Virus record (IMG/VR): IMGVR_UViG_3300018494_000126
From: a virus
Reading direction: 5' to 3' (one strand)
Length of the DNA: 64,000 nucleotides
Both the position numbers and the translations under genes were made by a program. Under the pieces are notes generated by a model. The model had not been told where the DNA came from, ran no database searches, and worked only from the letters and a program-made list of their open reading frames with translations. Shown piece after piece: positions 6,664 to 45,754 of this stretch (positions are counted from its first letter, which is position 1; each line of letters starts with the position of its first letter).

Positions 6664-6671
6664 ATTATTTT

Positions 6672-7224: not shown

Positions 7225-7239
7225 AGAGAAGGTGAAAAA

Positions 7240-7431: not shown

Positions 7432-7443
7432 CAGGAGGTAATA

Positions 7444-7653: not shown

Positions 7654-7669
7654 GTCAAAGGAGAAAAAC

Positions 7670-7984
7670 ATGACGGATTTTTTACTAGAAGAGATACCTA
7701 AACACCGCAAAAAGAAACAGTCCACTGTTTCAAAATCAAAATCAAAAGCAAAACATAAACACACATATAAGGATTGTTTATTGGTACATGAGAGCACACA
7801 TAAACCTTATAAAGCATTATATTGTGCTGATTGTGGTAAAATTTATGATTTTAAATTCTTTATAAGCGAAATAACTACCGATGGTTTACATCGGATTTTA
7901 GACGATGATGAAGTATATGCTAAATATGATGACCTACCACAATTTTTAGTTCATGATGTTTGGCAAAAATATGTAGCTATTTAA
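7670..7984 (+). CDS. basic zinc-finger-like protein
   Basis: Lys-rich N-terminus (KHRKKKQSTVSKSKSKAKHKH) and CADCGK motif. Confidence 0.45.
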   Translation: MTDFLLEEIPKHRKKKQSTVSKSKSKAKHKHTYKDCLLVHESTHKPYKALYCADCGKIYDFKFFISEITTDGLHRILDDDEVYAKYDDLPQFLVHDVWQKYVAI

Positions 7985-7999
7985 TTATTTATTATGAAT

Positions 8000-8088
8000 A
8001 AACAGGCCAAATCTATCTGCTAATGTACGAAGAAAAAACTAAACCTAAACCTAAAATTTACATAATTTATATTAGATTTGGCCTGTTT
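8000..8088. repeat. 15-bp inverted repeat with 59-nt loop (AAACAGGCCAAATCT / AGATTTGGCCTGTTT)
   Basis: Perfect complementarity read directly; loop contains the tandem AAACCTAAACCTAAA. Confidence 0.4.
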
Positions 8089-8100
8089 TAGAGGGAAAAA

Positions 8101-8307
8101 ATGAACGTTTTAGAGCAAAATGAGATGAAAAATATCGCAAAAGGTATGTCAGAAGAGGATAAAATCTACATTTTAAAAACTATATCAAATGAGATAATAA
8201 TTCAGGAGCTTTTGCGTAGATTAAACACAATGACTGGTATGTTAGCCGATATTACGGCTATTGTAAACCATAAAAAAATAACGGAGGACGAGGTATATGA
8301 ATCTTGA
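8101..8307 (+). CDS. hypothetical protein
   Basis: 68-aa ORF. Confidence 0.35.
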   Translation: MNVLEQNEMKNIAKGMSEEDKIYILKTISNEIIIQELLRRLNTMTGMLADITAIVNHKKITEDEVYES

Positions 8308-8881
8308 TACTCTACAGTTTTCGCAACATGCAAAACAGCGTTATGCGGAACGTATTATGAATAAACAAGACCAAACAGAAGTGGCCATTTTTCTATTCGA
8401 ACAAGACGACAAAATTAAAAACGATATTCGTAAAATGATAGAATATGGTGAACTGATTTATTCAGGAAAACCTACATCTGATATATTTAATAAACAGTTG
8501 GTCGATATTTATTTAAACGGAACATGGGTAATTATTGTAGACCCAAATAAAAATAATGTTATTACTTTATATAGTATTGATTTAGGCTTAGGTAAAGATT
8601 TTAATGACGAATACATTGAAAAATTGAAAGAGAAATTAGACCAAGCCAAACAAAAATTCGCTGAGAGTCAAGAAAGCGTAAATATTGAAAAAGAAACATA
8701 TAAATCTTTAATCCTAGATAATGATGCAGCCATTGCTGATTACAAATCCATTATCAAATCTTTGCAAGAACAGAATCAAGCATATCAAGAAGTTATCGAT
8801 ACCCTAGATACTAATACACAACTTTCTGAAAAAACAGTTCGTGACATAGTAGCCATTATGATTGGAAAGAAAATTTTCTAA
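8297..8881 (+). CDS. coiled-coil protein
   Basis: 194 aa; C-terminal half has a heptad-rich K/E/Q composition. Confidence 0.5.
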   Translation: MNLDTLQFSQHAKQRYAERIMNKQDQTEVAIFLFEQDDKIKNDIRKMIEYGELIYSGKPTSDIFNKQLVDIYLNGTWVIIVDPNKNNVITLYSIDLGLGKDFNDEYIEKLKEKLDQAKQKFAESQESVNIEKETYKSLILDNDAAIADYKSIIKSLQEQNQAYQEVIDTLDTNTQLSEKTVRDIVAIMIGKKIF

Positions 8882-8914
8882 TTACTAAAACGCAAAGCAA
8901 CTACTAAATTAAAA

Positions 8915-8943
8915 TGAACAACAGCCAAAAAAATTTGTATAAT
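8915..8943 (+). promoter_or_regulatory. sigma70-type promoter (TGAACA, 17 bp spacer, TGTATAAT)
   Basis: AAAATGAACAACAGCCAAAAAAATTTGTATAATG; consensus extended -10. Confidence 0.55.
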
Positions 8944-8972
8944 GTAATAAACGGCGACAGGAAAGGAAGTGA

Positions 8973-9197
8973 TTGTTTGGGAGTATGATTGTCGAAGTAA
9001 TCAATCAAAAATGTATAAAATGCGAGTGTGATTTAACACCAGAACAAGCAACGCAGACCATTATATATGGAAATTATGAAGCAAAATTAGGCGTTTGCCC
9101 TTGTTGTGGAACAACAAATACAATTGCTCACATTATAGATAAAAACATATATGTAAATACTGACGAACGTTATTACATATATAATTCTTATTCATAA
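8973..9197 (+). CDS. zinc-ribbon protein
   Basis: CIKCEC ... CPCCG motifs. Confidence 0.4.
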   Translation: MFGSMIVEVINQKCIKCECDLTPEQATQTIIYGNYEAKLGVCPCCGTTNTIAHIIDKNIYVNTDERYYIYNSYS

Positions 9198-9212
9198 CGA
9201 AAGGGATAAACA

Positions 9213-9539
9213 ATGCAAGTTCAACAGATGTATGTGGCTACCGATGGTAGCATGTTTAATAATCCAGATGAGTGTGTAAGATACGAAAAAACATTAAAAC
9301 CTGTAGATTATGAAGAAAAACAGAGACGTTTTGATGCTCTTCAGTACCAACTGGACAAAATTAATGCGGCAACTTATCGTTTGCATCAGGATATGTCACA
9401 GTTTGAAGCAGATTATGAGGGCTGTGTTTTATTTATTAACGAAGACACTTGTTGCATTGAAGAAATGTCAATGGATGAATTTGATTGGTGCTCATGTGAT
9501 GAGTGCGAATCTTGTATGACATGTATGATGAATCAGTAA
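9213..9539 (+). CDS. Cys-rich hypothetical protein
   Basis: C-terminal CCIEEMSMDEFDWCSCDECESCMTCM. Confidence 0.45.
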   Translation: MQVQQMYVATDGSMFNNPDECVRYEKTLKPVDYEEKQRRFDALQYQLDKINAATYRLHQDMSQFEADYEGCVLFINEDTCCIEEMSMDEFDWCSCDECESCMTCMMNQ

Positions 9540-9553
9540 AAAGGAGAAGAAAC

Positions 9554-10432
9554 ATGAGTGACACAACAAACACAAATTTAAAAGAGGCTAAAGCCGTTGC
9601 TTATAGTGCTGGTTTATTAAGCGAAATGGTTTTAGAAGAAAAGAAAGATGACGAAGGCCGTGACATTATTGAAGGTTATTTGACTGTAAAGACCAGCGAT
9701 GTAAATTTTGTAAAGTATAAAGCAAAGGCTAATAAACTTACACAGGATGGAAAAGAAAATTCAATTTACAAAGGTTTACAGACATGTAAAGAAGAATATA
9801 AAACTATTAAAGAAGTTGGTGAAGCAGAAGCTACCCAGTTAATTGTTAAAGGAAAAATTAATGCTTACACTGGTCGTAATGGAGATGTAGTAAACTTCCA
9901 GAGCAATTTCTTTAATAGAGCAAATAGACCTTTAACTACAGAAGATATGAAATCAGAGTTTGAAGTAGAAGTCTATATTAAATCTCTTGTTCCAGAAGTA
10001 GATACAGAGGGTGTTGAAACAGGGGCAGTAATTGTGCATGGATGGATGCCTACATATAACGGAATTGAACCTATTGCTTTAAAAGCACCTGCGACAGACG
10101 GAATTGCAGATGCAGTAATGGATAGTTATGAAGCTGGACAGACTGTATTATTTACAGGCGAGATTATTAATAATCGTATTGAACATATTAAAGAAATTCC
10201 TATGAAGATTGGTAAGCCAAAGGTAGAAATTACTTATGATTATAAGAATGATATGTTAATTACTGGTGCTTCAGAACCTTATGAAGATGAAAACGCATAT
10301 GATAAGGACACAGTAGCCTTAGCTATTAATGTCCGTAATGAGAAGATGGCTCAGAGACAGAATCAGACTGTAACTCCAGCACCACAGTCACGCCCATCTG
10401 CTCAGTCTAAAGGCCGTTCTTTGGGTTTCTAA
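9554..10432 (+). CDS. hypothetical protein (possible ssDNA-binding or annealing partner of the adjacent ATPase)
   Basis: ATG at 9554 with AAAGGAGAAGAAAC ribosome-binding site (the track's earlier TTG start is less likely); position next to the AAA_24-like ATPase. Confidence 0.45.
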   Translation: MSDTTNTNLKEAKAVAYSAGLLSEMVLEEKKDDEGRDIIEGYLTVKTSDVNFVKYKAKANKLTQDGKENSIYKGLQTCKEEYKTIKEVGEAEATQLIVKGKINAYTGRNGDVVNFQSNFFNRANRPLTTEDMKSEFEVEVYIKSLVPEVDTEGVETGAVIVHGWMPTYNGIEPIALKAPATDGIADAVMDSYEAGQTVLFTGEIINNRIEHIKEIPMKIGKPKVEITYDYKNDMLITGASEPYEDENAYDKDTVALAINVRNEKMAQRQNQTVTPAPQSRPSAQSKGRSLGF

Positions 10433-10494
10433 ACGAAGCCCGAAGCGGATTGAGTTACAACAATTTTGATTTTTAAAGATAAAGGAGAAGAAAA

Positions 10495-11490
10495 ATGGCA
10501 TCTTTAGATATTTTTGCGCCCCAGTATTCCACAGTTGCTAAAGGATTAGCAGGCAAAGTTTTACTTGTATACGGGGGTAATAATCTTGGAAAGACAAAAC
10601 AGGCAACGCGTATGGAAAAGCCGTTTTATTTACCATTTGAGGCTGGATTAAATGCTATTCCTAACGTTCCATTTTGTCCGATTACTAAATGGTCAGATTT
10701 TATCAAGATTAATAAGCAGTTAACTGACCCTACAACAGTAGAAAAAGCGAGAGAAATGTATTCTACAATTATTTTTGATTCAATTGAGCCAGCGGCCAAT
10801 TATTGTCAGGAATATATTTGTCAGAAATATGGAGAAGAATCTATTGCTTCAGGCAGAGGCGGTTATGGACTATGGAAAGAATACGCTACAGAATTTTGGA
10901 AACAGATTAACAAACTGGTTGGTGCTGGATATTGTGTATATTTTATTGCTCATGCACAATCAGACCCAAATACAGGCTTTATTTCTCCAAAGGCAGATAA
11001 GCGTAGTTTATCCCCAATCTTAGATAATACAGATTTATGCATCTACGTAGAATCTAATGGCGTGGATGAAGATGGACGTATTATTAAATCATCTGGTTAT
11101 TTAGCGGAGACAGATAGATTCTTTGCAAGAAGTAGATTTGATTATTTACCTTCCACTTATATGCCCGAGTTTACAGCAGAAAATTTAGAAAAGTTGATTG
11201 TAGATGCTATTGAGACACAGGAAAAAGCAGAAGGTATTACCGCTGTAACTTATGCAGAACAGAAAGCGCAGCGCACAGTCGAGAAAAAATCCTACGATGA
11301 ATTAATGGATGAAATGCAGATTCTAGGAGAAAAATTGGCTGAAGCAGGCTATTTGGATGATTTACAGAGAATTGTTGCTGATAATTTAGGTAGTGGTAAA
11401 AAAGCTTCTGATTTGAAAAAAGGTCAGGAACAGCAGATTGAAACCATTATTTATGATATTGAATCATTTATTGCAGAAATGAAACTGTAA
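10495..11490 (+). CDS. AAA_24 / Sak4-like RecA-fold ATPase
   Basis: N-terminal Walker A VLLVYGGNNLGKT; size and context typical of phage AAA_24 ATPases. Confidence 0.6.
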   Translation: MASLDIFAPQYSTVAKGLAGKVLLVYGGNNLGKTKQATRMEKPFYLPFEAGLNAIPNVPFCPITKWSDFIKINKQLTDPTTVEKAREMYSTIIFDSIEPAANYCQEYICQKYGEESIASGRGGYGLWKEYATEFWKQINKLVGAGYCVYFIAHAQSDPNTGFISPKADKRSLSPILDNTDLCIYVESNGVDEDGRIIKSSGYLAETDRFFARSRFDYLPSTYMPEFTAENLEKLIVDAIETQEKAEGITAVTYAEQKAQRTVEKKSYDELMDEMQILGEKLAEAGYLDDLQRIVADNLGSGKKASDLKKGQEQQIETIIYDIESFIAEMKL

Positions 11491-15953: not shown

Positions 15954-16082
15954 GTAAATGTAAGATGTATGAGACAGAAAGTTTTGGCACATCTTAAATA
16001 CCTCCTTTCTTTAATTCATTTCTTTAAACTTTATATAAGTTATGTTAGGGTTGCGGCTAACAATAAAAAACGCAAATAATTT

Positions 16083-16154
16083 TCCCCTTTATCCAAGCGG
16101 TTAAGGAACTCGGCTTTGACCCGAGGAGCGCTGGTTCGAATCCAGCAAGGGGAG
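16083..16154 (+). tRNA. tRNA-Gln (anticodon TTG)
   Basis: Manual fold: acceptor TCCCCTT/AAGGGGA, D-loop with GG, anticodon stem CTCGG/CCGAG, loop CTTTGAC, T-arm GCTGG-TTCGAAT-CCAGC, discriminator G. Confidence 0.8.
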
Positions 16155-16219
16155 TAAGGAATTGTATTCCATATTATTAACTATTAATCATTAAATTTTA
16201 TTAAAAAGGAGAACGAGCT

Positions 16220-19146: not shown

Positions 19147-21609
19147 ATGAGTTATTTTAGTATACACAACCACACAGACCGAGATAGTAATTTGCGTATA
19201 CGTGATTCAATTAACAAGGTATCAGATATTATCCAATATGCACATGATATAGGTTTAAAAGGAATTTGCCTAACAGGACATGAATCAGTCACTTCTAGCT
19301 TATCGGCAATAGAATATTTCTATAGCCATAAAGATAATCCAGAATGGGTAGATTTTAAAATAGGTTTGGGAAATGAAATCTATTTATGCACTCGTGATGT
19401 AACACCAGAAAATAAGAAAGGACAGAAATATCCGCACTTTATATTACTGGCTTTAGATTCTTTTGGACATAAGGGTATTAGAGAATTAAGTACACAATCA
19501 TGGTTAAACAATGCTTTTATGAATGTTATGATGCGTGTACCAACATATTATGACGAATTAGAAACTATGTTGGAGACATATAAAGGTCATATTATCGGTT
19601 CTTCTGCTTGCTTGGGAGGTATTTTACCTGCCAAAATATTGGAATTTGAAGCCACAAAAGACCCCGAATTATGGGGCGCATGTATTAGTTGGGTTGAATA
19701 TATGAATGAAATTTTTGGACAAGGTTATTTCTTTTTGGAATTACAACCTTCGCCTAAAATGGAACAGATTATAGTTAATCAATATCTAATTCGCTTATCT
19801 GAAATCACAAACACGCCTTATATTATCAGCACGGATTCCCATTACTTAAAGAAAGAAGATAGAAAATTCCACAAAATCTTTTTAGAAAGTCAGGACGGAG
19901 ATAGAGAAGTTGATGATTTTTATGAAACAACTTATGTGATGACTTCGGAAGAAATTCATGACTTTATGGATGCTTATATAGGGAAAGAAGCGGTACAAAG
20001 AGGTCTGGATAATACTTTATTGATTTATGATATGGTGCAAATATATGACCTGCGCAAACCGATGCGTATTCCGTATGTACCATTTAATTCATCTGAACCA
20101 GACCCATCTTTATTCAAAAAATATCAACCATTGATTCCTCATTTGGATTATTTCTTCCTTTCTGAATATGAGCCAGATAGACATTTGTGTAGAGAAATCG
20201 TGAATGAACTGGAAAGAAAGCCAAAAGAACTTTGCAACACAGAAACTTATGAGGCAATTGCAGAATGTTTGGATTCATTAATTATTGCTTCGGATAAGAT
20301 GAAAGTACGTTGGTCGGCCTATTTATTAGATGTTAAAGATATTGTAGAACTCTTATGGGAAGTATCATTAGTAGGATGTGGCCGAGGTTCTGGTGTAGGA
20401 TTTATTCTAAATTATATATTAAATATTACACAGATTAACCCTTTAAAAGAAAAAACGAAAACATTTCACTGGAGATTTTTAAATCCCGAACGTGCGTCGC
20501 CATTAGATATTGATGTAGATATTGAGGGTTCTAAACGAGAAGCGGTTATGCGAAAATTCCGTGACACTTATGGTGCAGATAGAATTAGTAAAGTTATGAC
20601 GTTATCTACCGAAAAACCACGTAGTGCTATTTTAACCAGTGCTAGAGGATTGGGTATAGATAATGATACGGCACAGTATATATCTTCATTAATTGTAGCA
20701 GATAGAGGACAATTACGTTCCTTTAAACAGATGTATTTTGGAGATGAAGATAACCGCCCTGTAATGGAATTTGTTCGTGAAATGGAAAGATACCCTGAAT
20801 TATGGGAGTGTGCACAGAAGTTTGAAGGTTTGGTAAATGGGGTAGGTTCTCATGCTGGGGGCATTATTTTAACAGATGAACCATTTACAGAAGTAGCAGC
20901 ACAGATGAAAACCAATTCAGGAGATATTATTACTCAATTTGATTTACATGAATGTGAAAAATTATCATTAATTAAATTCGACTGTCTGTCTGTAGAAGCA
21001 CTCGACAAGATTCATGCTTGTATGAATTTACTATTAGAGGATGGTGTTATTGAGTGGCAAGGAACTCTCAAAGATACTTATGAAAAGTATTTAGGTATAT
21101 ATACTTTAGAACGTGATGCAGAAGAAATGTGGAAATTACTGTGGGAACATAAAGTATTAAGCTTTTTCCAGATGGAGAAGGCTTCGGGGATTCAAGCCAT
21201 TTCGTTATCAAAACCACATTCAGTAGATGATTTAGCAGCTTTAAACTCAGTTATGAGACTTATGGCACAAGAAAAGGGTGGGGAAGCACCGCTTGAGAAG
21301 TATGCTAGATTTAAAAATGATATTAATTTATGGTATCAGGAAATGTCTAGTATGGGACTTACAGAGGAAGAACAAGATATATTAAAGGATATTTTAGGTA
21401 TTTCCTATGGTATTTGTGAAGCGCAGGAATACTTATTTCTGTTAGTTATGCATCCTAAGATTGGTGGTTTTTCATTAGCATGGGCAGACAAGTTGAGAAA
21501 ATCTGTAGCGAAGAAGTCTCCAAAAGATTTTGAAATATTACAGCAGGAATTTTTACAAAACGCAAAAGAAAAACAATTATCAAATAAATTAATTCGTTAT
21601 GTGTGGTTT
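19147..21609 (+). CDS. dnaE: DNA polymerase III alpha (DnaE-type), exon 1
   Basis: N-terminal PHP domain (HNHTDRDS...); last residues align to E. coli DnaE ...KQRSVF...IFDLVEKF just upstream of GYGFNKSH; exon end approximate. Confidence 0.8.
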
Positions 21610-21933
21610 GTATTAATTTTCATGCAACGTGGGTAAACAAACCTGCTCACGTAAAATTCGGTGAACGTATGCAAAAACGGTGTGTAACATTTTTGTTATG
21701 CTAACGGTGAAAGCCTAAGTCGTAAGATAAGGTAATACCGTGCCAAGCCTTATACATAAGGAAGGTGTAACGACTATTACGTACATCTGAGATTAGCACA
21801 GATGGAAGTGCCGAATAGAGTATTTTACTCTAAAGATATAGTCTAATCCCTATAGAAATACCGAGAAATCGGGGGTATAAATGATGGATTTAATCGTTCT
21901 CATTGTCTTGCTTACAGTTTATTGGGATTGCAG
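21610..21933 (+). mobile_element. group I intron in dnaE (no ORF)
   Basis: Untranslatable ~320-nt gap inside a conserved DnaE motif. Contains the group I S-element-like AAGATATAGTC preceded by GACTA, and a 5' motif (GTAAAATTCGGTGAAC) shared with the nrdD intron. Boundaries approximate: U before 5' site, G at 21933. Confidence 0.6.
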
Positions 21934-23310
21934 GAACTGAATTTATGTTATAAATATGGTTCAATCTATTGGTCTGCGGCCAATTTGGTTGTAGATTCTG
22001 GGTCATATAATGAAGATGCAAACGATGGAACTAACTATGGAAAAATGTCTACGGCTATTGCTTCAATTAAACAGAGTGGTACAGAAGTAGCTTTACCACT
22101 TATTAATGAAGCGGATTTTGGTTTTAAAGTGGATAAACAAAATAATCGTATCTTATTCAGTCTTAAAGCAATCAATGGAATCGGAACAGAAGCAGTACAA
22201 ACAATTCTAGAGCACCGACCATATAATTCATTTCAAGATTTCTGTGACAAACTTATCGTCACCAAATTACTCACAAATGCACAAATGATTAAGTTAATCA
22301 AAGGCGGTAGTTTTACCGAACTACACAATACAGACCGTACTAAAACTATGCGGTTATATTTAGAAAATTATGTGTTTAAACCATGTGATAATCTCACCAT
22401 GTCTCAAATGGGTAAAATGGTTGAAATGAAAATGATTCCTGATGAGTTTGACATTATTATACGTATTCTGAACTTTAAAGATTATGTTTTACATCCAGAT
22501 GGGTTAGATAGATTATATGTAAACCCAGATAAAAAAGTTCCGAAGTGCGGTTATCATGACAGATATTTTCTATTAGATAGCAATTCTCAATCATTTTTCG
22601 TGGCTAATTTCTCCGAAGATGCAGTAATTGAAGTGAAGAATTCGTATTATGTTATCTCTGAAAAGAACTTCTTGAAAGAAGTCGAAACCAAATTAAAAAC
22701 GTTTAGAGATTGGATGAGTAAAGAAGAAACACTAAACTTATACAATCAAAAACTATTTAATGAATTATGGGAGAAACACGCTTCTGGTACAGTACCTCAT
22801 TGGAATATGGAAGCATTAAGCTATTATGATGCGGAACATGAGTTAGACGGGGTAGATGAAAAGCATTATGGAATTGTCAATTACTTTGATTTACCAGAAG
22901 AACCAGAACCTTATGAGTGGTACACCCGTCGTATTAACGGAGAACCACGAGCGTTTCCTAAATATAAAATTAGCCGTTTGGCTGGAACAGTATTAGCGAA
23001 TGATAATAATCATCATTCATTTACTTTATTGACTAGATATGGAGTAGTAACAGTAAAAACAAATAAGGGAGCTTATGCTTATTATAACAAAACCATATCT
23101 CAGGTATCAGAAGAGAATGGTAAAAAGAAAAGATTGGAAGAAAGTTGGTTAAAACGAGGAACGCTTTTATTATGTCATGGTATGAGAATGGGAGACCAAT
23201 TCTTCTTAAAAGTGTATAACGATTCGATTTTTAATCACACCATTAACAAAATTGTAGAAGTTACGGATGAAAAGGAATTAATTGTACAAGCAGAGCGACT
23301 TCAAATCTAG
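21934..23310 (+). CDS. dnaE: DNA polymerase III alpha (DnaE-type), exon 2
   Basis: ...SIYWSAANLVVD... aligns to GYGFNKSHSAAYALV; (HhH)2 / OB-fold-like C-terminal region; same reading frame modulo 3 as exon 1. Confidence 0.75.
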   Translation, partial: ELNLCYKYGSIYWSAANLVVDSGSYNEDANDGTNYGKMSTAIASIKQSGTEVALPLINEADFGFKVDKQNNRILFSLKAINGIGTEAVQTILEHRPYNSFQDFCDKLIVTKLLTNAQMIKLIKGGSFTELHNTDRTKTMRLYLENYVFKPCDNLTMSQMGKMVEMKMIPDEFDIIIRILNFKDYVLHPDGLDRLYVNPDKKVPKCGYHDRYFLLDSNSQSFFVANFSEDAVIEVKNSYYVISEKNFLKEVETKLKTFRDWMSKEETLNLYNQKLFNELWEKHASGTVPHWNMEALSYYDAEHELDGVDEKHYGIVNYFDLPEEPEPYEWYTRRINGEPRAFPKYKISRLAGTVLANDNNHHSFTLLTRYGVVTVKTNKGAYAYYNKTISQVSEENGKKKRLEESWLKRGTLLLCHGMRMGDQFFLKVYNDSIFNHTINKIVEVTDEKELIVQAERLQI

Positions 23311-26840: not shown

Positions 26841-28043
26841 ATGAGGATTATTAAAAAAGATGGCACATTAGAAGATTATAATGAACAAAAAATAATTAAT
26901 GCTTGTAATAAAGCTGCTAGACGAGCAATGGTAGAATTAAATGCTAATGATTATCAGTTGATTTGTAACGCCGTCTGGGAAAAACTCGTTGAAAATGATT
27001 TAGAAGAAACTGAAATTTATGAAATGCATAATATCGTTGAAGCCGTATTGGAAGAATTATATCCAATAGTGGGGAAAATGTATAAAGAATATAGAAATTA
27101 TAAAAAAGACTTTGTTCATATGATGGATAAAGTATACGCCAGAAGTCAAGCAATTAGATACATTGGTGATAAGAGTAATGCTAATACTGATTCTGCTTTG
27201 GTGGCAACAAAGAGAAGTTTAATTTATAACGAACTGAGCAGTGAATTATATAAGAAGTTTTTCTTAACACTTGATGAAAAGCAAGCAATGAAAGATGGGT
27301 ACATCTATATCCATGATAGGAGTGCTAGACTTGATTCCTTTAATTGCTGTTTGATGCGTGTAGGCCATATTATGCATAACGGTTTTGAAATGGGGAACGT
27401 TTGGTATAACGAGCCTAATTCACTTGATACTGCATTCGATGTTATGGGAGATATTATCCTTTCAACAGCTGCACAGCAATACGGAGGGTTTACTGTACCA
27501 GAAGTTGATAAGATTTTAGCACCTTATGCAGAGAAGTCTTATAGAAAATATATTGAAGAATATAGAAAAGTTGAAAATGATGTATTAAGTCAAGTGTCTT
27601 GGAATGGTCGAGTTAAAGACGAAGGAGCTATAAAATATGCTCTTGATAAAGTCAGAAGAGACTTTGAACAAGGTTGGCAAGGCATTGAATATAAGTTAAA
27701 TACAGTTGGTTCTTCTAGGGGCGATTACCCATTCGTTACCATGACTATAGGATTAGCAACAGATATATTTGGCAAAATGGCCGCTATTACTTTACTCCAA
27801 GTACATAGTGAGGGCCAAGGTAAGAAAGGATTTAAGCGTCCTGTTTTATTCCCTAAGATTGTATTCTTATATGATAAAGAACTTCACGGAGATGGTTCTG
27901 AACAGTATCCAAATGCAGATGTATTTAATGCAGGAATTGATTGTAGTAGTAAAACCATGTATCCTGATTGGTTATCTTTAACTGGTAATGGATATGTACC
28001 TGAAATGTATAAGAAATATAAAAGAGTGATTAGTCCAATGGGT
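26841..28043 (+). CDS. nrdD: anaerobic ribonucleoside-triphosphate reductase NrdD, exon 1
   Basis: N-terminal ATP-cone (MRIIKKDGTLEDYNEQKIINA), class III RNR core, ends ...YKRVISPMG. Confidence 0.8.
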
Positions 28044-28943
28044 TAATATGATAGCTCATGTAAAACTCGGTGAACTTATATATATAAGGTGTCAATTCAA
28101 CGAATAGTAACCATAGGAAATGATGGCTAATGAATTGGCTAACAGGGGAAGTCATTATTATGATAATCCTGTGCTAATATTCAACGTATTCACTTTTAAA
28201 GAAGGTGAATTTTATATAGAAACAATAATTATAAATAAAGAAATTCAAGGTTTTGAGAGATATCGAATCAACATTAACGGTGTGATTTATGATACTAAAC
28301 GAAACAAAGAAATTGGTCAGTGGATAGATACCGTTGGGTATTACCAATGTGTTTTAAGAGATTCAAATGGTAAGAAATGTTATAAACGTGTACATAGGTT
28401 GGTCGCCAATACGTTTATTCCTAATCCAAATAATCTACCACAAGTCAATCATAAAGATGGAAATAAGTTAAATAATAATATAGATAACTTAGAGTGGTGT
28501 ACAAATAGTGATAACACCCAACATGGTTATGATAACAAATTATATAAATATAAGTCAAGATGTCATGCGATAAACGTCTATTATAAGAAAAATGGTAAAT
28601 ATTTTAAAACTTATAAATCTATAAGAAGTATGTGTGAAGATTTACATATTAATAGAAAGACAGTAACCATGATATTAAAAGATGAAAAATTAACTAATAA
28701 TTATGATTATTTATTTGAATACGTTGAAGAAAGTCAAGAGACTATCGAAAGCATAGCATAAGAGAAAAACTTATGCGAAGAAGCGAGTAGAGTACATATA
28801 AGGTGAAAGTCCTTATGTGGAAGTGCCGAGCATCTATTATTTGGTAATAGAATAATAGATGAAGATATAGTCCAAACTGCGAAAGCAGTTAGTGTCGTGC
28901 ATTCCTTTCTCCATGGTATGAAAGAGGTGGAATGCATCCTGCG
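28044..28943 (+). mobile_element. group I intron in nrdD carrying an HNH homing endonuclease ORF
   Basis: 5' end CATGTAAAACTCGGTGAACTTAT is homologous to the dnaE intron 5' end; 3' part has GGAAGTGCCGAG and the S-like AAGATATAGTCC; interrupts an otherwise continuous NrdD; boundaries approximate. Confidence 0.6.
28120..28761 (+). CDS. HNH homing endonuclease (intron-encoded)
   Basis: VHRLVANTF...NHKDGNKLNNNIDNLEWCT..NTQHG HNH_3-type motif plus NUMOD-like regions; lies inside the nrdD intron. Confidence 0.8.
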   Translation: MMANELANRGSHYYDNPVLIFNVFTFKEGEFYIETIIINKEIQGFERYRININGVIYDTKRNKEIGQWIDTVGYYQCVLRDSNGKKCYKRVHRLVANTFIPNPNNLPQVNHKDGNKLNNNIDNLEWCTNSDNTQHGYDNKLYKYKSRCHAINVYYKKNGKYFKTYKSIRSMCEDLHINRKTVTMILKDEKLTNNYDYLFEYVEESQETIESIA

Positions 28944-29852
28944 GATGAGGATGACAAGCCAGTATTTGAAGGAAGATGTAATTTAGGTGTTGTATCGCTT
29001 AATTTACCGATGATTTTAGCAAAATCAAGACAAGAATCAAAAGACTTTTTTGAAGTATTGGAACATTATCTTGAACTTATCAGAGGATTACATAAGCGTA
29101 CTTATGATTATATTGGAGAACTTCGAGCGAGTGTAAATCCTATTGCTTTCTGTGAGGGTGGTTTATATGGTGGTAATTTAAAACCAGAAGAGAAGATTAA
29201 GTCAATTCTTCCTCCTATGACAATTAGTTATGGTATTACTGCTCTAAACGAATTACAGAGATTATATAATGGTAACTCTATTAGAGAAGATGGACAATTT
29301 GCTTTAGAAGTAATGCAGTATATTCAGAACTATGTAGATAGAATTAAAGAAGAAGATAATATTCTATATGCAATATATGGAACGCCTGCTGAGAGCCTTT
29401 GTGGTTTACAAGTAGAACAGTTCCGTAAAATGTATGGGATTATCGAAAATGTGTCAGATAAGCCTTATGTAAGTAATAGTTTTCACTGTCATGTATCTGA
29501 AGAAATGTCACCTATTGAAAAACAAGATAAAGAAGAAAGATTTTGGGATTATTTCAATGGTGGAAAAATTCAGTATGTCAGATATAACTTAGGTTATAAC
29601 AAGGAAGCAATTAAAACTCTCGTGCTTAGAGCTATGGATAAAGGGTTTTATGAGGGGGTAAATCTTGCAATGTGTTATTGTGAAGATTGTGGCTATCAGC
29701 AAGTGGAAATGGATGTCTGCCCTAAATGTGGAAGTTCCATGATTACGAAAATTGACCGTATGAATGGCTATTTAGGATTCACTAGAGTACATGGTGATAC
29801 ACGTTATAACGAAGCAAAGAATGCGGAAATCGCGGATAGAGTGAGTATGTAA
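28944..29852 (+). CDS. nrdD: anaerobic ribonucleotide reductase NrdD, exon 2
   Basis: GRCNLGVVSLNLP motif, Zn-ribbon CEDCG...CPKCG, C-terminal RMNGYLG glycyl-radical-like motif; exon start approximate. Confidence 0.75.
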   Translation, partial: DEDDKPVFEGRCNLGVVSLNLPMILAKSRQESKDFFEVLEHYLELIRGLHKRTYDYIGELRASVNPIAFCEGGLYGGNLKPEEKIKSILPPMTISYGITALNELQRLYNGNSIREDGQFALEVMQYIQNYVDRIKEEDNILYAIYGTPAESLCGLQVEQFRKMYGIIENVSDKPYVSNSFHCHVSEEMSPIEKQDKEERFWDYFNGGKIQYVRYNLGYNKEAIKTLVLRAMDKGFYEGVNLAMCYCEDCGYQQVEMDVCPKCGSSMITKIDRMNGYLGFTRVHGDTRYNEAKNAEIADRVSM

Positions 29853-31499: not shown

Positions 31500-31534
31500 T
31501 CATGAAATTTTCATTTTATCAGGAGGAGAAGAAA

Positions 31535-31912
31535 ATGATATATACAAGTTATTTTGCAAAATTAAAATCATTACCAGATAACATTGTACCAATCTCAATT
31601 TGTGGCAAAGCACCTGATTGGTATAAGGGATTGCAGTATAAGAAGTTAGCACCAAAGTATGACTTTTTTATGAAATGGAAAGAGAATCATGATAACGACT
31701 ACTATATTAAATGCTTTAATGAGCAAGTGTTAGATAAGCTGAACGCAACGGATGTTGTTTTAGATTTTTCAAGATTATCGTATGACTACAATATTGGTGA
31801 GAAAGATGTGTGTCTGATTTGTTATGAAAAACCTTCTGATTTCTGTCATAGACATTTGGTAGCTGATTGGTTGAACGAGAATGGTTTTAAGTGCGAGGAG
31901 TGGATTGGATAA
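31535..31912 (+). CDS. DUF488 family protein
   Basis: C-terminal CLICYEKPSDFCHRHLVADWL matches the DUF488 CxEk...CHR signature; start taken at the ATG after AGGAGGAG. Confidence 0.6.
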   Translation: MIYTSYFAKLKSLPDNIVPISICGKAPDWYKGLQYKKLAPKYDFFMKWKENHDNDYYIKCFNEQVLDKLNATDVVLDFSRLSYDYNIGEKDVCLICYEKPSDFCHRHLVADWLNENGFKCEEWIG

Positions 31913-32890: not shown

Positions 32891-33304
32891 AATTAACGTT
32901 TGGTCAGGAGAAGGGATTGATGTGATGACGCTTGAAGATATTAGAAACGACACAGAGCATGATAGTTATATCTGCAATTATATAAATAAAGATGGAGAAG
33001 CTGATTGGATTATATTGTCTAAACATCAAATTTTGAATTGTGAATGGGCACAATTTTATTTTAATGGCGGGTATAAAGAAACTAGATAAAATAAATCTTT
33101 GATAAGGAGGATAATTATGACACCATATGAAATAGTTGACAATTTAGATTGTCTTGCAGACGAATTAGATGAGCTTAGTTACGGTGGTTATTATGAAGAT
33201 TTGGTTGCCGCTATGAGTTTAATATGTGAAACATTTAGCATCGAAAAGAAACAATTTAGAGCACTTAATAGTAAATAAAAACAAAGTTTGATAGGAGATA
33301 AAGT

Positions 33305-34093
33305 ATGGCATATATAAAAGAATATTGGGAAAACAAAGACCAAAGAGCACAGAGAGCAAGAAAACATACTACTGAAATGCAGAAATTACACGGAGATAAA
33401 ATTACACAATCCATCAAGAATACTAAAATTTATGATACTGATTTTATATGTAACGGAGATATTGTAAACGAATTAGAAGAACCTACAAAAATCATAGTTG
33501 CAGATGCGGATACGGTTATGGCATCCGGTAAATACTCAGATGGTAAAACTGCATTACTAAATTTTTCATCATACAAGAATCCTGGTGGTATGTTTCTTAA
33601 TGGTAGTAAAGCGCAGGAAGAATGTTTGTGTCATGATTCTTACTTATATAATGTTCTATCTCAGTTTGTTAAAGATTTTTATGATTGGAATAATCAGCAT
33701 AAGAACAAAGCGTTATATTTGAATCGTGGTTTATATACCCCGAATATTGTATTTCAATATGATGGGTCTGAAATCTATCGTGACGTAATTACATGTGCAG
33801 CTCCCAACAAATCAGCGGCGCAAAAGTATCAGAATGTTTCTGATACAGAGAATACAAAAGTTTTAAAATCAAGAATTAAATTTGTACTTGATATTGCAAA
33901 GGATAATGAAGTGGAAGTACTTATCTTAGGGGCATATGGTTGTGGTGTGTTCGGACAGAATCCTGTAGAAGTCGCAATGATTTTTAAGGAGTGTTTAGAA
34001 ACAACGTATAAGAATTGTTTTAGAAAAGTTGTATTCGCAATTCCAAGTGGTAGAGATGGTAATTTAGAAGCTTTTAAATCGGTATTTGAGTAA
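33305..34093 (+). CDS. microbial PARG-like macrodomain protein (DUF2263/TIGR02452 type)
   Basis: LLNFSSYKNPGGMFLNGSKAQEECLCHDSYLY matches the bacterial PARG signature NFA.AKNPGGGFL.GA.AQEE...S.LY (GGG-X6-8-QEE). Confidence 0.7.
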   Translation: MAYIKEYWENKDQRAQRARKHTTEMQKLHGDKITQSIKNTKIYDTDFICNGDIVNELEEPTKIIVADADTVMASGKYSDGKTALLNFSSYKNPGGMFLNGSKAQEECLCHDSYLYNVLSQFVKDFYDWNNQHKNKALYLNRGLYTPNIVFQYDGSEIYRDVITCAAPNKSAAQKYQNVSDTENTKVLKSRIKFVLDIAKDNEVEVLILGAYGCGVFGQNPVEVAMIFKECLETTYKNCFRKVVFAIPSGRDGNLEAFKSVFE

Positions 34094-34490
34094 ATAAAAT
34101 AACACTTTGGTTGGGAAAATGGAGGTAAAAATATGATTACACCACCACCCTTAAAAATTAATATTGAAGATAATAACGATATAAAAAGAGAAGAAGTTGA
34201 TGAAGCAATATTAGAAGAAATAAATAAGATATTAGAGATACTGCCAGAATATATTGGCGTTTAGTTCTTCTAAATAAAAACAGAACTTGATTTTGAATTG
34301 AGGTGATTTTTGTGGGAGTAAAAGTAACAATAGAAAGAAGAGCAGATGGTTATGATTGTTGGGGTAGAACAGAATATGAAGATTTTTATGTTGTAACAAA
34401 TGATAAAGGAAAGGTTGTTTATAATTCCAAGTACGACCCAACTAATTTAATTAAGGAATTGACAAATAATAAAGAGGATTAACAAGAAAT

Positions 34491-34862
34491 ATGGATTATA
34501 AGATTCTATTTTTGATAGGTATGATTTTCTGTCATATAGTTGATGATTATTACTTACAAGGTTGTTTAGCGGCTATGAAACAAAAAGAGTGGTGGGAGAA
34601 TACAAAACCTTTATATAAGCACGATTACATAATGGCATTATTCATGCATAGTTTTAGTTGGGCATTTAGTATTACATTACTTCCTACCTTGTATTTAATC
34701 TTATATGGCGGAAACTGGAGCATATCACTTTTTATTGTAAATGTCATAGCGCATATGTTTATAGATGATTTAAAGGCAAATCAGAAGAAAATAAATTTAG
34801 TTACAGACCAAAGTCTACATCTGCTACAGATAGTGGGAACATGGCTCTGTTATATGTACTAG
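34491..34862 (+). CDS. membrane protein (DUF3307-like)
   Basis: HIVDDYYLQG motif plus three or four hydrophobic helices. Confidence 0.45.
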   Translation: MDYKILFLIGMIFCHIVDDYYLQGCLAAMKQKEWWENTKPLYKHDYIMALFMHSFSWAFSITLLPTLYLILYGGNWSISLFIVNVIAHMFIDDLKANQKKINLVTDQSLHLLQIVGTWLCYMY

Positions 34863-37779: not shown

Positions 37780-37856
37780 ACTCTTGAACCACGCTAAAGA
37801 AGATTATTCACAACGGGTTTGGTTTAATGTCTATACACAGAAAAGAGGTGATTATT

Positions 37857-38624
37857 ATGTCTATTTGGGTAACGGGAGATATACATGGTAACCCCGTTAG
37901 ATTTAGTACAGATAATTTTTATGAACAAAAGGGGTTTAGCGGCAATAAAGATGAAAATGTAGTCATTATTCTTGGTGATTTTGGAATTATATGGCACAGA
38001 GAAGAAACCAGACAGGAAAAATATTTGTTAGATTGGTTAGAAGAAAAACCGTTTACCACTATTTTTGTAGATGGTAATCATGACAATATCCCTCGTTTAG
38101 ACACATTCCCAATTAAAGAATGGAATGGGGGATTGGTTAATGAACTACGTCCTCACGTTTTACGATTAAGAAGAGGGGAAATATTTACAATAGAAGATAA
38201 AAAATTCTTTGCTTTTGGCGGTGCAAGTTCTCACGATATTTCAGACGGTATTCTTGATTATGAAGATGAAGATTGGAGAGATAAAGCAAAGGCATTAGAT
38301 AAGCAAGGTAAATATATGTATCAAATTAAAGGATTGTCTTGGTGGGAGCACGAACTTCCTTCAGAAGAAGAAATGCAGAATGGGTGGAATAATTTAAGAA
38401 AACATAATTATAAGGTTGATTATATTATTACACATAGCCCTTCTGCTAGTGTAATTGCACTATTGGGTCATGGTTTATATAACCAAGATATATTAACTAC
38501 ATATTTAGAGGAAGTGCGACAAAAGACAGAGTTTAATAAACACCTATGTGGACATATGCATATTAATTATGTTGTAAACGATAAAGATATTCTTCTATAT
38601 GAACAGATTAGTAGAATTAATTAA
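37857..38624 (+). CDS. Ser/Thr-phosphatase-like metallophosphoesterase (second paralog)
   Basis: GDIHG, GDFGIIW, GNHD motifs (PP-lambda-like); start taken at the ATG after AGAGGTG. Confidence 0.75.
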   Translation: MSIWVTGDIHGNPVRFSTDNFYEQKGFSGNKDENVVIILGDFGIIWHREETRQEKYLLDWLEEKPFTTIFVDGNHDNIPRLDTFPIKEWNGGLVNELRPHVLRLRRGEIFTIEDKKFFAFGGASSHDISDGILDYEDEDWRDKAKALDKQGKYMYQIKGLSWWEHELPSEEEMQNGWNNLRKHNYKVDYIITHSPSASVIALLGHGLYNQDILTTYLEEVRQKTEFNKHLCGHMHINYVVNDKDILLYEQISRIN

Positions 38625-39735: not shown

Positions 39736-40281
39736 ATGAAAAAAATATTTTGTGTAATGGGAAGAAGCAGTAGTGGGAAGTCCACCTTGTCAAAAGAAGC
39801 AGCTAAACAGTTAGGTTTAACCATTCTTACTTCTTATACCACACGACCTCCTAGACCAGCCGAACTGGACGGTGAAACAGACCATATTTTTATTACCGAA
39901 GATGAAGTAGATAAATATCGAGATGATATTATGGCATACACCGTTATTAATGGTTATCAATATTTTTGTACATACTCTCAATTAATGGAGTGCGATATCT
40001 ACATTATTGACCCTAATGGTTATTACGAACTTAGTGAGAAAACAAAAGAATTAGATATTGAATTAATACCTATTTATATCACAGTAAGTAAAACTAAAGG
40101 AATTGAACGGGCTAAAAAAAGAAAAGATAATATTGATTCTTACTTACAACGCTATGAATCAGAAAACCAGCAATTTACCGAATTTGAAAAAAGTAACTTG
40201 ATTTGGTACAGGATTTTAAATCATGGCACTTTAGAAGAAGGAGTAGAACGTCTGGTACGAATTATTGATAAGGAGAGGTAA
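39736..40281 (+). CDS. guanylate-kinase-like P-loop kinase
   Basis: Walker A GRSSSGKST plus the SYTTRPPRPAE..G.DHIFI guanylate kinase signature; start overlaps the stop of the Crh-like gene. Confidence 0.7.
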   Translation: MKKIFCVMGRSSSGKSTLSKEAAKQLGLTILTSYTTRPPRPAELDGETDHIFITEDEVDKYRDDIMAYTVINGYQYFCTYSQLMECDIYIIDPNGYYELSEKTKELDIELIPIYITVSKTKGIERAKKRKDNIDSYLQRYESENQQFTEFEKSNLIWYRILNHGTLEEGVERLVRIIDKER

Positions 40282-41591: not shown

Positions 41592-41664
41592 AGCTGATGA
41601 CGGGAATCGAACCCGTGACCTCTTCACTACCAATGAAGTGCGCTACCGACTGTGCCACATCAGC
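41592..41664 (-). tRNA. tRNA-Thr (anticodon GGT)
   Basis: Reverse-complement folds as acceptor GCTGATG/CATCAGC, D-loop AGTCGGTA, anticodon stem CTTCA/TGAAG, loop TTGGTAG, T-arm ACGGG-TTCGATT-CCCGT; one A-C mismatch in D-stem. Confidence 0.75.
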
Positions 41665-41993: not shown

Positions 41994-43391
41994 ATGGCTA
42001 AAAGAAAAAACGGAGAAGGTAATTGGGGTACTCGTACAATTAATGGTGTTCAATATAAATACTATAGAAAGTATTATGATTGGAAAGATGATTATCACAC
42101 ATTCTATGGTAAAACAGAAAAAGAAATTAATCAAAAGAGAGAACAGTTTGAATTAGTAAATAAGGATAAGCATAAATTCGATGCTAAGAATGTTAAGCAG
42201 GAAACATTCTATCATTATTGCAAGCATTGGATAGAAGATATAAAACCTAATGATGGTTCAGATACAAAACAAGTAACTATTGATTCGTATGCAGATATGT
42301 TAGACAATCGAATTAAAGATACATTTCTGGGTAATACTCAAATTGCTTCATTAAGCGAAGATATTTTCCAAGATTATATAGATGATTATTGTGTAAAGCA
42401 AAAAGAATATTCGAGAGGTACAATTAAAAGAACGCAATCGTTATTAAATCAGATTTGCGAGTATATGTATGAAACAGATAAGTATGCTCCATGTAATTAT
42501 ATGGAAGACATCATCATTCCTTCTGAAAAGAACGTAAAAACCAAAAGGCGTAAAGTACCATTCTTAGAAGAATCAGATATGTTAAAACTCTATGATGAGT
42601 TTCAAAAAATGCATAGTACTGGTAGAAACAAATATGGACTAAATGCTCATATGGTTATATTTATCATGTATACTGGTTTGCGTATATCTGAGGCTCTTGC
42701 ACTTAAATGGAAGGATGTTAATTTAGACCTAAACATCATTACAATAACGCACGTTATTGCAAAAATAAGAAATCCAAAGGGTGATAAACCCAAACATATT
42801 TATGTAGATACAGATGGTACTAAAACATATTCTAGCGAGCGCAGCATTCCATTATCAGACATTGCTTTATTAATTCTTAAAGGTTTATGGAAAAACCAAG
42901 ACCCTAATTATTATGTTTTCACTGAGGATGGGGTTACAATTAGCAATCATAGTAATGTTACACGCACTTTAAACCTTATGCAAAAGAATGCAAATTGCAA
43001 GATAAAGAAAAGTGGATTACATTCTTTAAGACACACATTTGGTTCTTATTTGATACTTAAAGGCGTTGATATTAAGACTGTCAGTGAGTTATTAGGACAC
43101 TCTAGTATAGAAATTACGTTAAATATATATGTTCATATTATTAATGCTCAAAAAGCATCTGCTATCAAATTATTTAACAATGTTCAAAAGCAAGTAAATA
43201 CTACTCCTATAGGAGTAGTAGAATCATTGAGCAAAATGGGTATTTCACTAATAGAGATAGAAGAAGGAATGCTTGGCTATATTGAAAATGGAAAACTTGT
43301 TAAGCTTCCTATAAATAAAACTCTTGCAATTAATGATATTATAATTAACAATATAGACATATATAATGAATATTACAAAAGCGAGGAATAG
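41994..43391 (+). CDS. int: tyrosine integrase (large phage-type, N-terminal arm-binding domain)
   Basis: Box I YTGLRISEALAL; box II LHSLRHTFGSYL...LLGHSSIEITLNIYVH. Confidence 0.85.
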   Translation: MAKRKNGEGNWGTRTINGVQYKYYRKYYDWKDDYHTFYGKTEKEINQKREQFELVNKDKHKFDAKNVKQETFYHYCKHWIEDIKPNDGSDTKQVTIDSYADMLDNRIKDTFLGNTQIASLSEDIFQDYIDDYCVKQKEYSRGTIKRTQSLLNQICEYMYETDKYAPCNYMEDIIIPSEKNVKTKRRKVPFLEESDMLKLYDEFQKMHSTGRNKYGLNAHMVIFIMYTGLRISEALALKWKDVNLDLNIITITHVIAKIRNPKGDKPKHIYVDTDGTKTYSSERSIPLSDIALLILKGLWKNQDPNYYVFTEDGVTISNHSNVTRTLNLMQKNANCKIKKSGLHSLRHTFGSYLILKGVDIKTVSELLGHSSIEITLNIYVHIINAQKASAIKLFNNVQKQVNTTPIGVVESLSKMGISLIEIEEGMLGYIENGKLVKLPINKTLAINDIIINNIDIYNEYYKSEE

Positions 43392-44942: not shown

Positions 44943-45085
44943 AACTATTTCATATAATGGTTTTCCTAAGAATGTACCGATTTTTTGTTCTGTTGAATTT
45001 AAAGAAGTAATGTTTTGTAAACTTCTGCATATTCGACTCGATTTATATGCATACTAAATGCAAATCGTGCAAAGGAGATAATGAA

Positions 45086-45754
45086 ATGAACGCTTCTTAT
45101 ATAACCACTATACGGTTTCAAACTTTACAAATCCCAGTAAAAATGATGAAAGTTAACTGTGATAATAGTATTGAATTAAATCAATTATGTAAAGATTCTA
45201 AGGAAAGAGTGAGATACCATAAATATTGTCCTTCATGTAAGAAAGAAATTACAAACGAAGATATTGTAAAAGGTTATCAATATGCGAAAGATAAATATGT
45301 TGTATTGGAACAAACTGAAATTGATTCAATTACTACCGAACAGGATAAACAATTAACTGTAAGTTATTTTTGCAAATCTAAAGAAATAGGAGATTTATTA
45401 ATTTATAAATCTTATTATTTAGTACCTGATATGCAATCTGAAGAAAGATATGATTTATTTAGAAAGGCATTAATTGCGAATAAAGTGATAGCCATAGCTG
45501 AAATGGTTTTAGGTAATCAACAGAGATTAATTGCTTTATTTCCAAATAAAAGATGTATTGTAGCAACAATTCTATTTTACGAAAATGAAATCAACGAACT
45601 CCCATTGATTGCGTCACACAAACATCATAGACATGAGTTAGCAACTTTACAAACCCTGATTTCCACTTATACACATGAATTTGATTGGTCAACTCATTAT
45701 GATAAATATCAAACCAAATTGCGTAATTTAATTCAAAAAAAGATAAAACAATAA
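45086..45754 (+). CDS. ku: Ku-like DNA end-binding protein (bacterial NHEJ Ku / Mu Gam family)
   Basis: IPVKMMKV...RVRYHKYCPSCKKEITNEDIVKGYQYAKDKYVVLEQTE and KSYYLVPD...IAIAEMVLGNQQRLIALF align along the length of B. subtilis YkoV (IPIKLY...IKYEKVCTNCEK..DEIVKGYEYVKGKYVVL, RSYFVGPG...IGIANMTIRSKQQLAIL); start taken at the ATG after AAAGGAG. Confidence 0.8.
   Translation: MNASYITTIRFQTLQIPVKMMKVNCDNSIELNQLCKDSKERVRYHKYCPSCKKEITNEDIVKGYQYAKDKYVVLEQTEIDSITTEQDKQLTVSYFCKSKEIGDLLIYKSYYLVPDMQSEERYDLFRKALIANKVIAIAEMVLGNQQRLIALFPNKRCIVATILFYENEINELPLIASHKHHRHELATLQTLISTYTHEFDWSTHYDKYQTKLRNLIQKKIKQ

Follow-up and report, generated by a model that had tools for sequence, protein, structure and literature searches.

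The DNA analysed here, referred to as the window, is a stretch of 64,000 nucleotides from the IMG/VR virus record IMGVR_UViG_3300018494_000126. At positions 33305..34093 on the + strand it contains a gene for a protein of 262 amino acids, starting with ATG and ending with TAA. The sequence AGGAGA at 33293..33298 (+), seen directly 6 bases 5' of the start codon, resembles a Shine–Dalgarno element. The protein is composed of an N-terminal helical extension and a macrodomain. It is a bacterial-type poly(ADP-ribose) glycohydrolase (PARG) of the TIGR02452/PF10021/DUF2263 macrodomain family, encoded on a phage. The initial annotation, made from the sequence alone, had assigned the gene to the microbial-type PARG (DUF2263) macrodomains, and profile hidden Markov models, sequence matches to solved PARGs, the predicted fold and the phage context all agree with this assignment.

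The comparison with TIGR02452, which the initial annotation had named as a check, yields 194.2 bits (E=3e-57; cut-off 50 bits) over model positions 27–265 of 266 and thus covers nearly the whole model. For PF10021 PARG_cat_microb, the score is 91.4 bits (E=9e-26; cut-off 23.5). A phmmer search against the PDB sequences returns only the PARG from Deinococcus radiodurans (DrPARG, 5zd*, E=2e-26) and the PARG from Thermomonospora curvata (TcPARG, 3sig, E=2e-23). Because both family models and the PDB sequences match, the resemblance to microbial PARGs goes beyond a chance motif. The MacroD/Poa1p-type family PF01661 Macro is matched by the C-terminal part of the protein only, with 14.8 bits below the gathering score of 22. 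PF05028 PARG_cat, the canonical, eukaryote-type family, is absent among the Pfam matches at E<=1. No model of PADLOC-DB, DarG included, is matched at E<=0.01, and no PHROGs family was found for the protein.

The predicted fold leads to the same family. AlphaFold run from the single sequence gave an unusable model with a pLDDT of 40, and we instead used the model based on a multiple sequence alignment of 72 sequences, which reaches a pLDDT of 88.1 and a pTM of 0.88. It features a long N-terminal helix at residues 11–39, followed by an alpha/beta macrodomain. In a Foldseek search of this model against the PDB, ranks 1–13 are all occupied by TcPARG or DrPARG, with E-values of 1e-17 to 1e-13 and template modelling (TM) scores of 0.72–0.82. 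MacroD-type domains come after the PARGs, with TM scores of about 0.4–0.5 only. The initial annotation had stated that it would be refuted if structure prediction gave no macrodomain fold; the predicted structure is a macrodomain that is nearest to the solved bacterial PARGs.

The catalytic loop NPGGMFLNGSKAQEE comprises residues 92–106 (33578..33622, +) and was located by alignment to 3sig and 5zd* and by a motif census among homologues. Here the PARG signature reads GGM-X7-QEE, with G94-G95-M96 and Q104-E105-E106 separated by 7 residues. The initial annotation had given it as GGG-X6-8-QEE. The QEE and the X7 spacing are found as described, but the third glycine is not, as Met96 stands in its place. 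Q104-E105-E106 aligns with the QEE of 5zd* and 3sig, and all 132 homologues in which the motif can be detected have QEE. The counterparts of E106 in the alignments are the catalytic residues Glu115 of TcPARG (numbered according to the title of 3SIJ, E115A) and Glu112 of DrPARG (numbered according to PMC6445106); in DrPARG, the mutation E112A abolishes activity (PMC6445106). The third signature position was followed in about 130 relatives. Most close relatives have M, others have G, R, K, Q, C or A and are nevertheless recognised by the family models, and the third 'G' is therefore a variable position in this branch. The diphosphate-binding loop GAYGCGVF at residues 209–216 (33929..33952, +) aligns with GAWGCGVF of DrPARG, and the pattern GA[YFW]GCGVF is kept in 130 of the 132 homologues. 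An alignment of 72 homologues with 62–80% identity contains 56 invariant columns, among them G94, G95, Q104, E105, E106 and the segment G209–Q218. We conclude that the phage PARG has an intact active site as far as the QEE, its X7 spacing and the diphosphate-binding loop are concerned.

A further element is the ribose cap, for which we follow the numbering of PMC6445106. In TcPARG this cap is an ion pair of Arg268 and Asp261 that enforces exo-only cleavage; it is a trait of a subtype and does not define the family. The cap aspartate (Asp261 in TcPARG, Asp260 in DrPARG, within FAVLD) aligns with Ser248 (within FAIPS) of the phage PARG, which is not conserved. By this alignment, no cap that would restrict the phage protein to exo cleavage is evident. 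Arg268/Thr267 falls outside the part aligned by HMMER; when aligned by hand, its position may correspond to the invariant Asn253.

TcPARG (3SIG/3SIH/3SIJ) is the best structural match, with a Foldseek E-value of 1.6e-17, a TM score of 0.80 and 29% identity. It shares with the phage PARG the N-terminal helical extension in front of the macrodomain, the QEE loop with E115 in the position of E106 and the diphosphate loop. It differs by GGG instead of GGM and by Asp261 instead of Ser248, and it is encoded on an actinobacterial chromosome, whereas the present PARG resides on a phage. DrPARG (DRB0099, 5ZDA-5ZDG) is the best sequence match among the solved structures (E=2e-26, about 30% identity, TM 0.72–0.82). 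In contrast to the phage PARG in its AlphaFold model, it has no long N-terminal helix (PMC6445106). DrPARG hydrolyses poly(ADP-ribose) (PAR), 2'-O-ADP-ribosylated RNA and ADP-ribose on phosphate ends, and it is encoded in an operon with a ligase and an HD/kinase gene in the order ligase-PARG-HD/kinase (PMC11833690). This arrangement is echoed by the RNA-repair neighbours of related phage PARGs described below, but in the window neither a ligase nor a kinase-HD gene adjoins the PARG gene.

The family is large. Among 1.84 billion representatives we find 7,842 PARG clusters at 50% identity for E<=1e-3, and 839 for E<=1e-30. By tblastn, only 20 of 50,697 deposited phage genomes contain a homologue. 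These carriers are Lak megaphages (41–45% identity; 45% for Lak-A1), Bacillus phage G with gp114 (36%), two huge uncultured phages of 595 and 642 kb and one human-faecal record of 23 kb. IMG/VR holds a relative on 159 viral contigs, the best with 70% identity, and most of the 80 contigs that we kept of these 159 are 90–200 kb long. BFVD contains virus-borne PARGs with E=4e-16 to 1e-11 from Bodo saltans virus, Orpheovirus, Pandoravirus and Marseillevirus, in addition to 'Gp114' of an uncultured marine phage; several carry the label 'Microbial-type PARG catalytic domain-containing protein'. Viral PARGs are thus nothing new as such, since virus-borne members are already in the databases. The viral PARGs known from sequence (phage G gp114, Lak, marine Gp114, giant viruses) have the same family and fold as the present one, which belongs to a distinct GGM clade in gut-Clostridia phages of about 100–200 kb with at most 70% identity in IMG/VR. 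Ten long homologues were checked for additional domains. In one of 396 amino acids (P0248), PARG is joined to a YAcAr (SLOG) domain, one of 512 amino acids (P0121) consists of tandem PARG domains, and the others have no second domain.

The window is part of a phage of about 131 kb with a Gram-positive host, probably a member of the Lachnospiraceae. By PHROG and Pfam, it encodes a DnaB-like helicase, PolIII-alpha in two halves, a RecD2/Dda-like helicase, NrdD, a dUTPase, a tyrosine integrase, tail-fibre proteins and an endolysin with Amidase_5, GH25 and SH3_3 domains. That the host is Gram-positive is indicated by the endolysin domains. Among cellular PARGs, the nearest homologues (55–67% identity) belong nearly all to Lachnospiraceae (C. 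symbiosum, Acetatifactor, Blautia, Fusicatenibacter). The G+C content of the window is about 32%. At about 45.9 kb, coding changes from the + strand to the - strand together with a switch in GC skew, and the lysis and tail genes are located on the - strand past this switch. Small + strand genes follow one another downstream of the genes for replication and nucleotide metabolism, and PARG is one of them. The early region in which the initial annotation had placed the gene is a plausible label, judged from the gene layout, because the PARG gene shares the + strand block (1 to about 45.9 kb) with the replication and nucleotide-metabolism genes; early or middle expression would both fit. At least 24 metagenomic contigs, of which the longest measure 131–139 kb, encode the identical protein, and a megablast search with the window segment 32–36 kb against the 50,697 phage records gave no match. 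Promoter and terminator scans of 30–39 kb were uninformative. Promoter-like sites are fewer than in shuffled sequences, and so are the terminator-like sites, of which there are two, one of them near the PARG gene at 34242..34259.

We then compared the surroundings of PARG genes across related loci. Open reading frames (ORFs) within 8 kb on either side of PARG were clustered from 80 viral loci (IMG/VR) and 56 loci of genomes or metagenome-assembled genomes (MAGs), and the representatives were annotated with Pfam. KptA/Tpt1 (PF01885, 163 bits) is encoded 2–144 bp downstream of PARG in four loci (L109, L110, L112, L119) and is also present in L131 and in the phage locus L044. RlaP (PF10127) abuts PARG in L126 and L131, and an RlaP-like nucleotidyltransferase (v15) is found in 13 viral and 3 genome/MAG loci, mostly immediately upstream of a metallophosphoesterase family that we call MPE_A. 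In 30/80 viral and 6/56 bacterial loci, an MPE_A gene is found no more than 8 kb from PARG, and in L130 and L143 it is only 4–7 bp downstream of PARG. Among the 80 viral loci, a CCA-adding enzyme is present in 13, SIR2 in 8 and a P-loop kinase-HD protein in 13; the last count was scored on the kinase half alone, since CCA-adding enzymes carry an HD domain too. Cassettes of the type KptA-RlaP-CCA-SIR2-(MPE_A)-...-PARG are found in L044, L057 and L033, and other loci have the orders PARG-RlaP-MPE_A or MPE_A-DUF3307-PARG-kinase/HD. The varying gene order argues against purely inherited synteny. After dereplication of the PARGs at 75% identity, at least one of KptA, RlaP, CCA and MPE lies within 8 kb in 23/48 clusters, and MPE_A in 13/48. 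The association of PARG with RNA-repair and NAD/ADP-ribose genes is real but partial. No poly(ADP-ribose) polymerase (PARP) or other ADP-ribosyltransferase (ART) is found beside PARG in the 136 loci.

Several of these loci deserve a description of their own. The PARG-KptA/Tpt1 pairs are tight and on the same strand in Acetatifactor/Lachnospiraceae MAGs (L109 8001-9400, L110 296-1739, L112 8001-9400, L119 8001-9454). KptA/Tpt1 is an RNA 2'-phosphotransferase of the ART fold, and judged from the gene arrangement these pairs could represent a writer and an eraser for ADP-ribose on RNA ends. On a metagenomic contig of 508 kb (L010), which also counts among the loci with an RNA-repair cassette, SIR2, PARG, a small ORF, RlaP and two metallophosphoesterases follow one another at 5627..11458, and nearby genes encode GmrSD and a PemK toxin as well as several DNA methylases, one with an intein. 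This contig could belong to a megaphage or to another giant mobile element. In four Oscillospiraceae/Clostridia MAGs (L133, L135, L136, L142), a conserved protein of about 213 amino acids is encoded 3–67 bp upstream of PARG. Its match to SUKH-1/SMI1_KNR4 is below threshold (E=0.0045) and we do not rely on it; if real, a SUKH-like immunity family beside PARG would fit a role in toxin immunity.

In the window itself, a gene for a calcineurin-like metallophosphoesterase of the MPE_A family is located at 37827..38624 (+; Pfam Metallophos; phrog_1649, E=1e-32; public start at 37857), 3.7 kb downstream of PARG, and is a possible partner with a weak link to it. A second phosphoesterase is encoded far upstream of PARG at 2235..2756 (phrog_547). 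Further neighbours are a DUF3307 membrane protein (34491..34862) and a guanylate-kinase-like protein (39736..40281). At 31502..31912 (+; public start at 31535) lies a gene for DUF488-N3a (PF22751, 54 bits; phrog_2450), a member of the 'active DUF488-N3 subclade' of the rhodanese-phosphatase superfamily. This domain was reportedly defined by Burroughs and Aravind in 2023. The gene has weak PADLOC matches to the candidate systems PDC-M45C and PDC-M19A. We considered it as a conserved partner of PARG and rejected it, as it is found near PARG in 2 other loci only. The search for a partner transferase used precomputed Pfam annotation tiled over 41.5–121 kb of the parent contig Ga0224414_10001254 (about 80 kb), in which no ART, PARP, KptA, SIR2, Nudix or RNA ligase was found. 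With no transferase in the annotated 80 kb, the phage PARG appears as an orphan eraser. Within the window, tblastn and Pfam detect no KptA, SIR2, RlaP, CCA-adding enzyme or ligase. A complete NAD+-dependent RNA-repair cassette would have KptA or SIR2, an RNA ligase or an RlaP/CCA nucleotidyltransferase and a phosphoesterase beside the macrodomain. Of this set, the window contains phosphoesterases only; its PARG is a relative of the cassette members and not part of a complete cassette.

We propose that the phage PARG erases ADP-ribose from nucleic acids, chiefly from RNA, and would thereby serve RNA repair or counter-defence, and we assign to this reading a probability of about 0.5. The recurring neighbours KptA/Tpt1, RlaP, CCA, SIR2 and MPE favour ADP-ribose on nucleic acids, RNA above all, over ADP-ribose on proteins or DNA bases. 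The biochemistry of the family is consistent with such a function. The catalytic glutamate of the QEE allows bacterial-type PARGs to hydrolyse PAR at its ribose(1''-2')ribose bond (PMC8120803; PMC6445106). The PARGs of S. coelicolor and D. radiodurans remove the 2'-O-ADP-ribose that RhsP2 attaches to RNA, a linkage identical to that in PAR, and also ADP-ribose from the 5'-phosphate ends made by Tpt1/KptA-type enzymes, and they protect E. coli from RhsP2 (PMC11833690). The ester-linked ADP-ribose that characterised members of the family cleave can sit on 5'- or 3'-phosphate ends, both of RNA and of DNA. Damaged 3' ends of tRNAs are extended with nucleotides by RlaP (PMC12776372).

In the proposed mechanism, PARG would most likely be co-expressed with the replication and nucleotide-metabolism block. 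Its macrodomain is predicted to bind the ADP-ribose unit, and E106, the second glutamate of the QEE, would hydrolyse the bond at C1'' of the distal ribose and set free ADP-ribose. During infection, the enzyme may strip ADP-ribose off nucleic acids at RNA 2'-OH groups or phosphate ends. The outcome would be either that an ART-type attack by the host is undone or that by-products of NAD-dependent RNA-end healing are cleared. The metallophosphoesterase encoded 3.7 kb downstream may follow on in the processing of ends or of ADP-ribose products. A reversal of host immunity based on ADP-ribosylation, as put forward by the initial annotation, is plausible but is more aptly seen as the removal of ADP-ribose from nucleic acids in connection with RNA repair.

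Phage networks for NAD-dependent RNA repair that combine KptA or sirtuins with phosphoesterases and Macro domains have been proposed before (PMC7824862, PMC9503650). The networks described there by Iyer, Burroughs, Aravind et al. include 2H, calcineurin-like and HD phosphoesterases as well as RlaP and CCA nucleotidyltransferases beside KptA or sirtuins and Macro. In related loci, PARG sits in such gene sets (KptA-RlaP-CCA-SIR2-MPE_A-PARG), whereas the window has the phosphoesterase part only. These surveys treat Macro domains generically, and neither PARG nor DUF2263 is named in the passages of PMC9503650 covered here. The phage PARG is not a new kind of protein, because viral microbial-type PARGs are catalogued and the conceptual framework exists. 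Its assignment is the correct annotation of a known family, which is useful and not surprising.

Several points weigh against a role in erasing ADP-ribose from nucleic acids. The RNA-repair partners KptA, RlaP, CCA-adding enzyme and RNA ligase are absent from the window, where the sole link to RNA repair is the phosphoesterase, about ten small genes away from PARG. Many of the small ORFs around PARG have no detectable family. In the signature, Met96 occupies the position of the third glycine, a substitution read from the sequence that may bear on function. About half of the dereplicated PARG clusters have no RNA-repair neighbours at all, and the association in the others was counted without a proper background control and could partly reflect a modular genome layout, since accessory genes cluster in phage genomes anyway. 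In addition, about 50 kb of the phage (1–41.5 and 121–131.5 kb of the parent contig) are outside the annotation and could hold a transferase.

One alternative is the classical function of the family, in which PAR on proteins, made by the host or by a PARP-like enzyme of the phage that has escaped notice, would be degraded and a stress or defence response based on PARylation could be blunted. PAR hydrolysis is the founding activity of the family (TcPARG, DrPARG, HaPARG; PMC5966428, PMC6445106) and is shared by a clostridial member that has an active PARP as its partner in C. difficile CD160 (PMC5966428), and jumbo phages sometimes carry PARP-like ARTs (PMC7824862). We nevertheless regard PAR turnover as unlikely. 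No PARP or ART is encoded in the roughly 80 kb of annotated phage sequence or beside PARG in the related loci, bacterial PARPs are rare (PMC5966428), and the conserved neighbours of PARG are RNA-end enzymes and not PARPs. The substrate might also be a soluble ADP-ribose molecule, either the immune signal 1''-2' glycocyclic ADP-ribose (gcADPR) of Thoeris-type systems, which would be silenced, or, for detoxification, the products of KptA. These products are the 1'',2''-cyclic phosphate and the 1''-phosphate of ADP-ribose. SIR2 and KptA genes recur near PARG, and a metallophosphoesterase could process phosphorylated ADP-ribose products. The 1''-2' ribose-ribose bond of gcADPR equals the PAR bond that is cut by PARGs (PMC11833690, PMC9503650), and the SLOG domain fused to PARG in P0248 belongs to a class predicted to handle ligands derived from NAD or ADP-ribose (PMC7824862). 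This fusion is, however, a single case among the ten long homologues checked. In the literature searched, no PARG is reported to act on gcADPR and no paper contains both terms. The known anti-Thoeris proteins are sponges, and the phosphatases acting on ADP-ribose-1''-phosphate are of the MacroD/Poa1 type and not of the PARG type. On balance we consider a soluble substrate rather improbable.

Phage-borne macrodomains that erase ADP-ribose are known from counter-defence. Against DarTG, phages have orphan antitoxins that are DarG-like or of the NADAR type (PMC11825919, PMC11481870, PMC13309987), and the phage PARG could mimic them by removing ADP-ribose from thymidine or guanosine bases of phage DNA that was modified by a DarT-like toxin. 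This would be the literal form of the immunity reading in the initial annotation. DarG, TARG1 and the orphan DarG mimics of phages belong to the macrodomain superfamily like the phage PARG, but they represent another class, directed at base-linked ADP-ribose on DNA. The phage antitoxins are of the TARG1/DarG type or NADAR and not of the PARG type. For the present protein, the fold matches are PARGs, PADLOC yields no match, and Pfam detects no ART-like neighbour that could be a DarT-like toxin over 41.5–121 kb of the parent contig. PARG chemistry is the cleavage of O-glycosidic or phosphoester bonds and not of N-glycosidic bonds to bases (PMC11833690). We therefore hold this explanation to be very improbable. 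Finally, PARG could be a passenger, that is, an accessory gene shuffled among mobile elements of Lachnospiraceae with no specific role in infection, or a non-catalytic ADP-ribose binder. Homologues of 55–67% identity in Lachnospiraceae MAGs and genomes do lie beside integrase fragments and transposases (L007), and the contexts of PARG are very diverse. The strong purifying conservation contradicts this view, with 56 invariant columns in 72 homologues and all catalytic residues among them; the same protein recurs unchanged on the metagenomic contigs mentioned above, and relatives are found on 159 viral contigs. A mere passenger is quite unlikely.

A further reading concerns the GGM clade. In the gut-Clostridia phages of 100–200 kb, these PARGs would be dedicated to counter-defence and hydrolyse the 1''-2' ribose-ribose bond of a host immune product. 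Such a product could be 2'-O-ADP-ribose written on RNA by an ART, or the 1''-2' gcADPR made by TIR/Thoeris systems. We consider this reading rather improbable; if true, it would provide the first enzymatic eraser, as opposed to a sponge, of such an immune product in phages. Bacterial-type PARGs are widespread, and it was shown only in 2025 that they erase toxin-made ADP-ribosylation of RNA and protect the cell. A conserved and catalytically intact PARG that recurs among large gut phages would testify to a conflict between Clostridia and their phages over the ADP-ribosylation of nucleic acids, and the recurrent KptA/Tpt1, RlaP, CCA, sirtuin and phosphoesterase neighbours add to this argument. 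The enzyme family is also compact and includes GGM as a natural variant of the signature.

Apart from PARG, several further features were noticed. A group I catalytic intron at 21643..21865 (+) matches Rfam RF00028 over the full length of the model with 62.5 bits. It lies exactly between the two halves of PolIII-alpha, which are encoded by the ORFs 19147..21636 (PHP/pol3_alpha/finger) and 21922..23310 (HHH_6). The NrdD gene is split as well (26841..29852, +), with an ATP-cone and NRDD part at 26841..28046, an HNH_3 endonuclease ORF at 28120..28761 and a second NRDD part at 28932..29852. Judged from this order, it looks like an insertion of an intron or a homing endonuclease; Rfam gives no intron at the gathering score at this site. 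Four genes for tyrosine recombinases (Phage_integrase) are present, three in the window at 4263..5300, 5368..6300 and 41994..43391 and one past its end (L154 5698..6705); one of the four is MrpR-like. Together with a Ku-like gene for DNA-end binding at 45047..45754 (phrog_4873), these recombinases are an unusual load for a phage of about 131 kb. Two tRNA genes are found, tRNA-Gln(TTG) at 16082..16155 (+) and tRNA-Thr(GGT) at 41592..41664 (-). The tRNA-Thr gene runs counter to the genes that flank it and is located just upstream of the integrase gene at 41994..43391.

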